Assembly: GCF_050920415.1 (NCBI RefSeq)
Contig: NZ_CP169310.1
DNA length: 64,000 bases
From: Escherichia coli
GTDB taxonomy: Bacteria; Pseudomonadota; Gammaproteobacteria; Enterobacterales; Enterobacteriaceae
Strand: one strand, 5' to 3'
This document shows, piece by piece, positions 6,001 through 9,000 of the stretch. The position numbers were made by a program. Positions within the stretch are counted from its first letter, which is position 1, and each line of letters opens with the position of its first letter.

Positions 6001-9000
6001 TCGTGAATATATTGAGATCGCTATTTCCAAAAGAGATGGCCAATTTAAATTTTTCAACAATCATTCAGTCCTCTTCACAACCGGAGCAAAAAAGTGATGA
6101 GGAGACAAAAAAGAATGCGATGAAGTTAATAAACTAATTAAATTATGATTGCGTTTCCTTTATCCACTATCAGGCTGGATAAAGGGAACTTAATCAAGTT
6201 ATTTTCTTGCCAGTCATTACATAAAATAAACAGGGTCGTTATTATGAAATTATTCCACGGAACTTATGAAAAAGTGGCTCCAATAATCAAAATTGGTGAG
6301 TTCGCAATGTCTGGCAATAACGTTTTTGATGGGTTATTTGCCAGCCCGGAGCGCGATATTGCTGCCAGTCACGGAAACACCGTATTCATATACCATGTTG
6401 ATGATGATAAAATAGCCAAATCCCGTGATCTTGATGCTCATTTTCAAGAGGTTTATGCCTTCTTACATAACGAACTGGATACTGCTGACGTAGAGGAAAT
6501 AGCAGATCACGTCATGTGGGATAACAATTCAGATATCGAGGATTTTGCAGATATTCTCTCGCCACGCCTCGGCAGCGATATTAGGGGAGCATACTCATGG
6601 TAATTGCAACGCCTGCGTGGTCGTGTAGCCACTTACCTTGGATTTGATGCCATAGAAATGAACGATGAACACGGCACAAGTTACCTCATTGTGAATCCAC
6701 AATAAAGGTGAATAAAATGAATTCCCGCATTAAAGGGACCAGATATTCTCCAGTTCCTCCTGTCCTGCAAGGCTATACGGTCTGTACAGCAATGAAAATG
6801 AGCTGTACGCGGTTGAAGGATTTACCCGCAGTCGGGCCGTGAGGGCCGCTTACGAACATGTATGACAGAGTTACATTTATACAATGTCCTGCAGGGCATA
6901 GAAGGGGCGAAAGAAAATACCTGGGCGAAGCCGCTGAACATCATTCTGGCGATTCCAATAAAGGTACTTGCTCGCGCTCTGTCATTTTCTGAAACTCTTC
7001 ATGTTGCATTTCGATTTTCCTTCTAAGATCATAACGCGCATACCTGTTCTTTTTATGTATATCTATATCTATTTTTGTGACGAGTTCAAACCACAATGTT
7101 CGCACTCCCCATGCAGCGTTATGAAACATTTCCGCAACGGCTATAGAGTCTGTATTAACTGCTTCAGTCATATAGTCGCTAATACGTTCAGCGGTAATTT
7201 TCGTTATTTCATCGTAATTCATTTTATCTCCTACAAGATTATTTAATGGAATACAAAATATCTGGCCTGATAATAATTTTCCAGAATTAATATCTGCAGG
7301 CTATGTTAAGTTGTCCTCACACACAATCTACCTGTTTTCTCGTGTGTGCCACAGGCGCAATACATAAATAGTCTGACCAGTAAGTTCGTAACGGATTTCG
7401 TACTCACCAGCAAAAATCCGTCTGACCTCCCTGGGTTCAAACTGAAACAACTGTTCTCCCATACGTGGATGAGTTAACAGAATGATCGGTGCCTGTGTCA
7501 GGGACTGCACCGTTCTGGCTGCAGCTGGTTTACTGGCCAGCGCCAGAAAATCATATAACCGCTCCAAATCAGAAAGCGCCTTACTGGTCCACTTCAGTTC
7601 CATCAGCGAGGCACCGGTAACGAATTGTCAGTATCGAGGCTGTCCGCCCAGGCCTGTACAGCCTGATGGTCGATAACCCGTCCGGATGTCACATCGTCCA
7701 GTGCTTCCAGCGTCAGGCGATTACGCTCCTCCTCCTGGGCAATCCATGCAGAAAGCGCCTGTTTGATAATCCAGCCCCGGGACCGTTCCAGTCTGGCGGC
7801 CATCTGGTCGACTTTATCAGCCATAAGTAATGGCACATGCGCGGTAATTACTTTTGTTGCTTGTGCGGTATTGTTTTTCATTTGCATATCCGATTAGTTG
7901 TTAATCACATTTAATCATAGTGATTACATTCAGGCGGAACAAGGCAAATAATGCGCGCCAACGCATGTAAGGCGGCACTCCGTTGTTTCATATGGCACAG
8001 AAATAAAACCGCCGAAGCCCGGCGTAAGCCGGTACTGATTGACAGATTTAACCTTACCCACCCCATCCTGTTAAGCCATACCCACTTTCAGCCATGACAG
8101 AGCTTCTGTGCGCGGTCGGAGTGGTCCCGACAAGGGTTTCCCCGAAGTCGGGGCGTATCTCCGCGTAAGCGGGCCGTCAGGGCCGCTTACGAGCGTGTAT
8201 GACAGACATTAGCGGGCATGAAAAAATGGCAACTCTCAAAGACAGTGGCGTTGACACAGCGGCAGCAGCAACTACCTCTCTAATCCTGGTCAGGCAGGTA
8301 GTAGGCGTTGGCTTCATGCCTGCCGTTGGTGGTTGTTCTGGTAACGGTGATTTGCCCTGCCTGTTCCAGCGTCTGAATTGCCCGCTTAACACTCTGTCGA
8401 CTAATACCGGACAGAATAACCAGTTCAGTGATTGAGATTTGATTTTTTCCGGCAGCAATGAAGCTGGCGATTACACACAGGATTGAACTTGTCGTTCTCA
8501 ATGTCAGCGACCCCTTATCACTGCCAGACCATGTTTTTTGCTTGCGGCTGTCTGGATGTTGTCCGAAGGTCATCGAATAGTAGTTCAAAGAAAAAAAGAC
8601 ATCGAGAAACACGGGAACTCTTTATCTGTCCAGTTTTAACCATGAGCATGCGCCTGAATGCCCCATGTATCGTCAGTTTTCCGGAAATGAAGAGGAAACC
8701 TCCTCCGGAACAGGCCGGCATCCCGTGCTCCCGTATAAATAACAGAAACTTTTTACCACCTGATGACCGTAATTCCGTTATCAGACTGCAGGCTCGCTCT
8801 GCTTACCATGATGGTGAGCGCTCCTCCGTTCGCAAGAAACGTCCGCGCCTTTCCCGTTTACTCCAGTCTCTTATTGAAGATGCCGGGCTGAATAAACTGG
8901 ATTCCCTGACCAATCCCCGTATCCGGGCTAATTATCGTGAGTGTCCTGATGCCATACGGCAGGTTACACTGCAGCAGGAGTATATTCGGGGAAGAGCCTT

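Follow-up and report, generated by a model that had tools for sequence, protein, structure and literature searches.

We examined a 64,000-nt stretch of an Escherichia coli plasmid sequence (contig NZ_CP169310.1, RefSeq assembly GCF_050920415.1; hereafter the window), focusing on a group of small genes that follows the partition genes parM and parR. Immediately downstream of parM/parR (4822-6137), all four open reading frames (ORFs) of an initial annotation of this DNA were found where it had placed them (Table 1): an acidic ORF of 119 amino acids (aa) on the plus strand and, convergent with it on the minus strand, an ORF of 93 aa (ORF93), a ParE/RelE-family toxin gene and a ribbon-helix-helix (RHH) antitoxin gene. 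Positions 6100-8000 are 100% identical to the E. coli plasmid pCFSAN004180G (NZ_CP012500; a 225-kb conjugative IncFIA/FIB plasmid), and seven sister plasmids share 99.8-100% identity with the same segment. From left to right, the annotation of pCFSAN004180G lists a leading-region set (antirestriction protein, DUF1380 and DNA methylase; all on the minus strand), then parM and parR on the plus strand, and then the four-ORF cluster. Using the Frpo2 sequence provided in the supplement of PMC11541004 as query, blastn matched this single-stranded DNA promoter of the F plasmid at 167..1 of the window, in reverse orientation and with 98.8% identity. The start of the window therefore lies inside the leading region, with the Frpo-driven genes running leftwards on the minus strand, and the match fixes the minus strand as the early-transcribed orientation.

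The acidic ORF is correctly labeled as such, with an isoelectric point (pI) of 4.47 and 23 Asp and Glu vs 9 Lys and Arg residues; an alternative longer reading of 152 aa starts from an ATG at 6145. What had been overlooked is that the frame stays open for another 33 codons past its TAA stop. Profile searches of the two small proteins placed the 119-aa ORF in the AcrIF11 family (NCBIfam NF052490, "AcrIF11 family anti-CRISPR ADP-ribosyltransferase"; curated cut-off 50 bits) and ORF93 in no family. With the stop read as Glu, the reconstructed 153-aa protein scored 112.7 bits over model positions 1-142. The 119-aa ORF alone reached 53.4 bits (model positions 1-101 of 142), which is above the cut-off, and the 33-aa tail alone 45.7 bits (model positions 114-142). 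The reconstructed protein also matched PHROG 11282 (E=1e-40) and, by phmmer, the AcrF11 entry 6kyf of the Protein Data Bank (PDB; E=2.9e-13), with the WELQRLRG and DEHGT motifs aligning. For relatives of the protein, precomputed tables list PF26151, which was not reported by a Pfam-A scan of the fragment. A Foldseek search with the AlphaFold2 model of the reconstructed protein (mean predicted local distance difference test score, pLDDT, 70.6) ranked 6kyf first (E=4.8e-5, probability 1.00) and 8dwq second. These two reference structures, 6KYF of AcrIF11Pae1 and 8DWQ of AcrIF11Pae2, were the sole meaningful fold matches, and an ADP-ribosyltransferase fold resembling 6KYF was obtained for the reconstructed protein only. 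With read-through of the stop, the protein shares with AcrIF11 the signature FHG[ST], VFDG[LI]F, SHG, W-E-x-Q-R-L-R-G-R and D-E-H-G-T-S-Y-L-I, and its gene is plasmid-borne, as are many family members; in contrast, its identity to the Pseudomonas protein is about 30%. The family assignment is not new, as Escherichia is already among the genera with listed AcrIF11 homologues.

Unlike AcrIF11, the window gene is interrupted by a nonsense codon ahead of the catalytic Asp-Glu loop, leaving 119 codons or the N-terminal 78% of the gene, and carries a 2-bp deletion near the 3' end by which, according to the DNA alignments, the final four codons are gone. At the position of the stop, CP141865, the closest relative that differs there, has GAA. 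In a 24-member family alignment, the corresponding Glu120 is invariant and part of a W-E-x-Q-R-x-R-G-R motif; D141/E142 are invariant as well, as are nearly all of the C-terminal 34 residues. The codons of the catalytic loop are located in the 3' remnant (Asp 6664-6666, Glu 6667-6669, His 6670-6672). The key residues of AcrIF11 have been described as H-F-H-D; D115/E116 of AcrIF11Pae1 (D146/E147 of AcrIF11Pae2) form a conserved catalytic loop, and the D115A and D146A/E147A mutations abolished both ADP-ribosylation of Csy1 and anti-CRISPR activity (PMC11383003). In the window gene, D115/E116 correspond to D141/E142 (codons 6664-6669), and the catalytic loop is absent from the translated product. 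As the TAA precedes this loop, the product is left without an active site, and the 119-aa ORF is almost certainly a pseudogene of an AcrIF11-family gene, the truncated copy being most likely non-functional. The intact ancestral enzyme would have used NAD to ADP-ribosylate Cas8f (Csy1) of type I-F CRISPR-Cas and thus have blocked interference, a mechanism that is established for Pseudomonas AcrIF11 and that, by homology, may be extended only to the ancestor of the window copy. In the window copy, a GAA>TAA change at codon 120 ends translation at residue 119, and the 2-bp deletion, as a second lesion, has altered the 3' end. Of the anti-defense role guessed for the acidic ORF in the initial annotation, the family stands (AcrIF11, NF052490), but the function most likely does not, given the nonsense truncation and the missing Asp-Glu loop.

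Two other explanations of this allele were considered. The stop allele differs from its relatives by one base, as might result from a sequencing or assembly error in a gene that is in fact intact; we regard this as practically negligible, because eight independently sequenced complete plasmids share the identical TAA and gene calls on 396 contigs yield exactly this 119-aa product. The same spread could instead mean that the 119-aa product still works without catalysis, as an anti-CRISPR or other anti-defense protein acting by stoichiometric binding, or that separately made halves reassemble. The product does retain the N-terminal residues of the NAD site, H5 (FHGT), F28/F32 (VFDGLF) and H43 (SHG), all of them invariant in the 24-member alignment, and the DEHGT motif is still intact in the 3' remnant. 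However, such a function appears very unlikely, since the catalytic-loop mutants D115A and D146A/E147A of AcrIF11 already lack anti-CRISPR activity (PMC11383003) and conservation in the family is highest in the missing 34 residues. The remnant carries the 2-bp deletion as a second lesion, and it would have to start at a TTG codon, with the sole upstream purine-rich stretch ending about 14 nt before it. Reading through the stop is disfavored by its TAA-T context, which is a strong terminator of translation in E. coli. Finally, the same gene is inactivated in other ways in sister plasmids, which fits decay and not neofunctionalization.

Three of four aligned plasmid copies each carry a different lesion. 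In pKP2_2 (locus L005, NZ_CP041948, 3990-4470), an 11-bp deletion shifts the frame after codon 8 and the invariant His of FHGT is lost, and CP141865 has lost the 5' end of the gene and a further 12 bp by deletion. The fourth copy, that of pC193, is an uninterrupted 157-aa form in which Tyr replaces the His of DEHGT. By tblastn, the anti-CRISPR (acr) gene was matched in 511 plasmids of PLSDB (Escherichia 367, Klebsiella 78, Shigella 40, Salmonella 13, others 13). Among these, eight have the TAA nonsense allele, four give two-piece alignments and 259 hold remnants with less than 80% protein coverage. In about 210, the alignment begins only at residue 8 (residues 8-153, the pattern of pKP2_2); this figure is the remainder after subtraction from the 252 records whose coverage is 80% or more, not the outcome of record-by-record inspection. 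The gene is uninterrupted over residues 1-153 in about 29 of the 511, which is an upper bound, as tblastn tolerates in-frame stops. The plasmids bearing the gene (in E. coli, Klebsiella, Shigella and Salmonella) are mostly predicted to be conjugative. Since most copies are defective by several independent lesions, we infer weak or intermittent selection in these hosts for blocking type I-F CRISPR-Cas. If so, tallying anti-CRISPR genes by homology only would overestimate functional anti-defense capacity. No description of this decay pattern was found in the literature searched. The RefSeq label "hypothetical protein" of the 119-aa product should become an AcrIF11-family pseudogene flag.

The copy in pKP2_2 is located directly downstream of parMR, as in the window, and is followed by different cargo, a DUF4238 gene and then ppl, an anti-phage gene. 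The position behind parMR therefore resembles a site of variable defense and anti-defense cargo. The initial annotation had also appealed to the enrichment of addiction or anti-defense genes in leading and stability regions. The leading-region argument does not apply to the acr gene because it lies opposite in strand to the Frpo-driven leading-region genes. By its position on the parMR strand, it departs from the orientation rule reported for leading-region anti-defense genes (PMC11541004). No aca regulator was seen beside the gene. The inverted repeat between the parR stop and the acr start (21-nt arms, 9-nt loop) is possibly a weak parMR terminator or a regulator-binding site for acr. Behind the remnant, a 44-aa ORF at 6708-6842 was rejected as a gene and treated as non-coding; its frame is broken by a 1-bp indel in CP141865.

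Table 1 Features of the region downstream of parMR in the window
Feature	Position	Strand	Basis
Inverted repeat, parR stop to acr start	6146..6196	.	Repeat search, 86% complementary
AcrIF11-family N-terminal fragment (119 codons + TAA)	6244..6603	+	NCBIfam NF052490, PDB 6kyf, PHROG 11282
Premature stop TAA; GAA (Glu120) in relatives	6601..6603	+	DNA alignments with CP141865, pC193 and pKP2_2
In-frame 3' acr remnant, 33 codons, catalytic loop	6604..6705	+	NCBIfam NF052490, 45.7 bits
Degenerate repeat copy, left boundary of ORF93 and toxin-antitoxin module	6820..6869	+	Direct repeat with 8157-8206, 82%
ORF93, conserved 93-aa protein, predicted three-helix bundle	6941..7222	-	Homologues, dN/dS, AlphaFold2
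Gap from toxin stop to ORF93 start, 105 bp	7223..7327	-	Sequence reading and site scan
ParE/RelE-family toxin gene, 91 aa	7328..7603	-	Pfam PF05016, PHROG 2455, RefSeq
RHH (CopG-type) antitoxin gene, 94 aa	7603..7887	-	Pfam PF01402, PHROG 25976
Putative toxin-antitoxin promoter/operator	7901..7942	-	Read directly from the sequence
Full repeat copy (~250 bp), right boundary of ORF93 and toxin-antitoxin module	7951..8206	+	Five-copy alignment

On the opposite strand, the initial annotation had recognized a type II toxin-antitoxin (TA) pair with classic overlap and orientation, and domain matches, gene order and overlap all bore this out. The toxin matched ParE_toxin (PF05016) with 62.9 bits (cut-off 23) over residues 3-90 as well as PHROG 2455 (E=9e-22), and is annotated in RefSeq as "RelE/ParE family toxin"; the antitoxin matched RHH_1 (PF01402) with 38.7 bits (cut-off 20.5) and PHROG 25976 (E=1.7e-43). 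The antitoxin gene comes first, and its stop overlaps the start of the toxin gene by 1 nt (TGATG, 7601-7605). The pair is an ordinary type II system. With type II ParE/RelE-RHH modules such as the 7ETR pair and ParDE it has in common the antitoxin-first order of small, overlapping and coupled genes, an RHH DNA-binding domain at the N terminus of the antitoxin, a ParE_toxin domain in the toxin and a palindromic candidate operator in the promoter region, but it is only weakly similar to any solved pair (E ~1e-3). Toxin and antitoxin gave weak matches to PDB 7etr_C and 7etr_A, respectively, and 7ETR and 6XRW are the nearest, weakly similar, solved pairs. DNA gyrase is the expected target of ParE-type toxins, and the C-terminal VLRLWHTRE of the toxin is presumably like that of ParE rather than RelE. 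Identity with YacA/YacB was rejected: the toxin is 26% identical to YacB of pC193, the antitoxin had no significant match to YacA, and an NCBIfam scan of the pair returned neither YacA nor YacB.

Upstream of the antitoxin gene, a candidate promoter consists of a -10 element TATGAT (7919-7914) and a -35 element TTGTTC (7942-7937) with a spacer of 17 nt. The candidate -10 element is overlapped by a palindrome, TAATCAC-N11-GTGATTA at 7902-7926, with two TTAATCA repeats 10 bp apart. Palindrome and candidate promoter are conserved in L021, another locus with a ParE-type toxin beside a member of the ORF93 family; a consensus promoter scan did not report the candidate. The palindromic sites would be in keeping with an operator autoregulated by an RHH protein. 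The antitoxin presumably represses its own promoter via the TAATCAC/GTGATTA sites and neutralizes the ParE-like toxin; after loss of the plasmid, the more labile antitoxin would decay and the toxin poison the cell. The TA operon would be transcribed in the same orientation as the Frpo-driven leading-region genes and on the strand opposite to acr.

The TA pair and ORF93 together form a block that is bracketed by two copies of an intergenic element of about 250 bp (Table 1), and homology breakpoints in thousands of plasmids coincide with this element. The core of the element, GGGCCGTNAGGGCCGCTTACGA, occurs five times in the window, each time on the plus strand, with zero occurrences expected by chance. 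Its copies are located at 7951-8206 and around 6834, 12635, 33647 and 52723 and contain several GC-rich hairpins; those at 33647 and 52723 are part of a ~19-kb duplication in which sta1 is found as well. On the left side of the block, homology in thousands of plasmids begins at about 6833-6862, and many plasmids contain the element alone (as query positions 1252-1503). A terminator-like hairpin is present inside the full copy on the minus strand (8024-8010). The element was rejected as a Frpo-type single-stranded DNA promoter, as blastn gave no match to Frpo1 or Frpo2 of ColIb-P9 or to Frpo2 of F, and an Rfam search of 5700-8700 gave no match either. When folding of the copy at 7951-8206 was compared with shuffled sequences, the plus strand gave z=-2.9 and the minus strand z=-1.1, a difference that is not decisive.

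ORF93 follows the toxin gene on the same strand after a gap of exactly 105 bp, where about 105 bp had been stated, and is moderately AT-rich (38.3% G+C vs 45.5% for the whole window). Within the gap, a good ribosome-binding site (AGGAGA) precedes the ORF93 ATG by 5 nt; a scan of the gap detected neither a terminator-like hairpin nor a promoter-like site. ORF93 is a genuine gene under purifying selection. It has 197 homologues, mostly of near-constant length (~93 aa), down to 60% identity and without a Pfam domain. The ratio of nonsynonymous to synonymous substitution rates (dN/dS) is 0.14 at a dS of 0.96 (compared with the copy in locus L022), and the gene is present in 2,562 PLSDB plasmids. 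The concern of the initial annotation that the small ORFs might lack conservation in related plasmids therefore does not hold for ORF93. The protein is mildly acidic (pI 5.2) and helical, and AlphaFold2 confidently predicted a three-helix bundle (pLDDT 92.8). No family was matched in Pfam, PHROGs, NCBIfam or PADLOC, and Foldseek searches with the model against PDB and BFVD returned nothing better than E=0.5, just generic helical bundles. A HMMER profile search of 1.84 billion representatives retrieved only 76 clusters, all belonging to the same small family. Among them are about 15 full-length relatives at 25-38% identity, and the relatives share an N-A-A-W-G...L-W core and a V-P-L-L C-terminal tail. 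Some sources label ORF93 as "Stability (Stb) locus of IncFII plasmid NR1", and in an IncFII-type plasmid it is convergent with parR, with no acr gene in between. ORF93 ranks among the more widespread unannotated plasmid backbone proteins and recurs beside TA modules.

In five of about 14 distinct contexts, counting that of the window, TA modules with toxins of four Pfam families are located upstream of ORF93 or its relatives: ParE_toxin (window, L021, L023), HigB-like_toxin (L014), HigB_toxin (L020) and PemK_toxin (L011/L012, L019) (Table 2). By a rough estimate that was not computed, this adjacency is above chance.

Table 2 Genomic contexts of ORF93 relatives outside the ParE-type loci (HTH, helix-turn-helix)
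Locus	Context	TA module and intervening ORFs
L014	HigB-like toxin and HTH antitoxin upstream, same strand	0 intervening ORFs (82-bp gap)
L020	HigB_toxin and HTH antitoxin upstream, same strand	1 intervening ORF
L011/L012	MazE and PemK upstream, same strand	2 intervening ORFs
L019	MazE and PemK upstream, same strand	4 intervening ORFs, the last being hha
L016/L017, L025	ParA-RHH partition loci	No recognized TA module
L027/L028, L029	IncX-type TopB-SprT regions (IncX4 among them)	No recognized TA module
L018	P7-like phage-plasmid, near a Tad2-like gene	No recognized TA module
L024	Overlapping HTH gene directly upstream	No recognized TA module
L008, L010, L015, L022	Runs of small unannotated ORFs	No recognized TA module

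These neighborhoods raise the question whether ORF93 is a third TA component that is co-transcribed with the RHH-ParE pair and modulates toxin activation or antitoxin turnover. Given that the partner toxin families differ, the point of action of such a component would need to be a step common to type II systems, e.g. antitoxin proteolysis, and not one particular toxin. In favor of this are the position on the same strand 105 bp downstream of the toxin, the gap in which the scan found no terminator-like site, and the distant relatives (27-38% identity) that follow type II modules of the four toxin families. The arrangement also recalls tripartite TA systems (toxin-antitoxin-chaperone, TAC, systems of the type HigB-HigA-SecB-like chaperone; PaaR-PaaA-ParE), in that ORF93 stands beside a type II pair as a third, co-oriented small gene and that the order in L014 is HigB-like toxin, HTH antitoxin and ORF93 homologue. 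However, the 93-aa three-helix bundle belongs neither to the SecB-like chaperones nor to the HTH regulators, and the gene also occurs without any TA module. Membership of ORF93 in the chaperone- or regulator-type tripartite systems was rejected on both grounds and on the arrangement in L014. In L014, a terminator-like hairpin with a T-run, an AT-rich stretch and a separate ribosome-binding site lie between antitoxin and homologue; co-transcription with the TA pair is possible in the window, but for this reason it is not a family-wide rule. Furthermore, in L020, L011 and L019 the TA module and the homologue are separated by one to four unrelated ORFs, many plasmids retain ORF93 with a truncated TA module or none, and relatives are found at ParA-RHH partition loci, in IncX4 TopB-SprT regions and in a P7-like phage-plasmid, all of them free of TA genes. 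As maintenance regions are rich in TA modules and small backbone genes alike, their adjacency may be passive, and we consider a third-component role of ORF93 improbable.

About equally doubtful is a role as an anti-defense or establishment protein that would be made early in the recipient and inhibit host immunity or a stress factor. This would suit a small, mildly acidic and helical protein that is widespread on conjugative plasmids and co-oriented with the Frpo-driven leading-region genes, and one relative lies near a Tad2-like gene in a phage-plasmid (L018). Moreover, leading regions are enriched in TA genes and many uncharacterized genes (PMC11541004). On the other hand, ORF93 matched no anti-defense family in NCBIfam, PHROGs or PADLOC, its sequence was not found in the text supplementary files of PMC11541004, and no structural analogue turned up in PDB or BFVD by Foldseek. 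It is also located several kb beyond the Frpo site, with no Frpo-like element close by. The initial annotation had proposed that the uncharacterized ORFs might serve addiction or anti-defense; for ORF93, no such function could be shown.

In our preferred reading, ORF93 would be an independent small backbone factor of plasmid maintenance regions with a protein-binding or regulatory role, and not an obligate third TA component. A bolder and unlikely alternative would be that ORF93 founds a plasmid family of ~90-aa three-helix bundles that is functionally tied to type II TA modules irrespective of toxin family (ParE, two HigB types, MazF/PemK). If so, the family might tune a shared step such as antitoxin proteolysis, or it might shield a newly arriving plasmid from TA-based or Hha/H-NS-type silencing or defense by the host.

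Genes for Hha were noticed near several relatives. In L019 (Hafnia paralvei NZ_LXET01000070, 1169-3264), mazE, pemK, two membrane-like ORFs, a 124-aa ORF, hha and the ORF93 homologue follow each other on one strand, with hha 33 bp upstream of the homologue; in L027/L028, hha lies two genes upstream of it. This proximity hints at a link with Hha/H-NS-type modulators. Kinship of ORF93 with the protein in the TomB position upstream of the Hafnia hha was rejected, as hhalign found no similarity, and Pfam did not confirm that protein as TomB. The idea that the 71-aa protein upstream of the IncX4 homologue is Hha was unsupported.

Taken together, we read the region, with a probability of roughly 80%, as a mosaic stability/establishment segment of an IncFIA/FIB E. 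coli virulence plasmid, composed of a decayed acr gene, an intact TA operon and the independent ORF93, three parts that are unrelated to each other. Several points weigh against this reading. The truncated acr allele is widespread (396 contigs), which in principle could reflect retained function instead of clonal spread, and the model of the reconstructed Acr protein is poor over residues 1-44 (pLDDT < 50). For the toxin, the sequence does not decide between gyrase and ribosome-bound mRNA as target, matches to solved toxins being weak (E ~1e-3). The recurrent position of the ORF93 family just downstream of TA modules may make "independent" too strong a word, and for every part, activity and expression are predicted from sequence. 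The current understanding of TA systems and anti-CRISPRs is not changed by any of these findings.

Elsewhere in the window, a second ParM/partition-stability gene pair is present on the minus strand at 15227-18068 (108664-111505 of the record), together with a gene for a ParA family protein and a small gene annotated as "GroEL"; the plasmid therefore has at least two actin-type partition loci. A hypothetical ORF of 196 aa at 9387-9977 (WP_001355339.1) is very AT-rich (~32% G+C) and looks foreign. Degenerate transposase-like reading frames occupy 8483-9385, just before this ORF. The product of a gene at about 13288-13854 (106725-107291 of the record) contains a YopT-type cysteine protease domain. 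The plasmid, which is of the Shiga toxin-producing/enterotoxigenic E. coli (STEC/ETEC) type, also carries the enterohemolysin operon ehxCABD, two copies of the heat-stable enterotoxin gene sta1, and astA.

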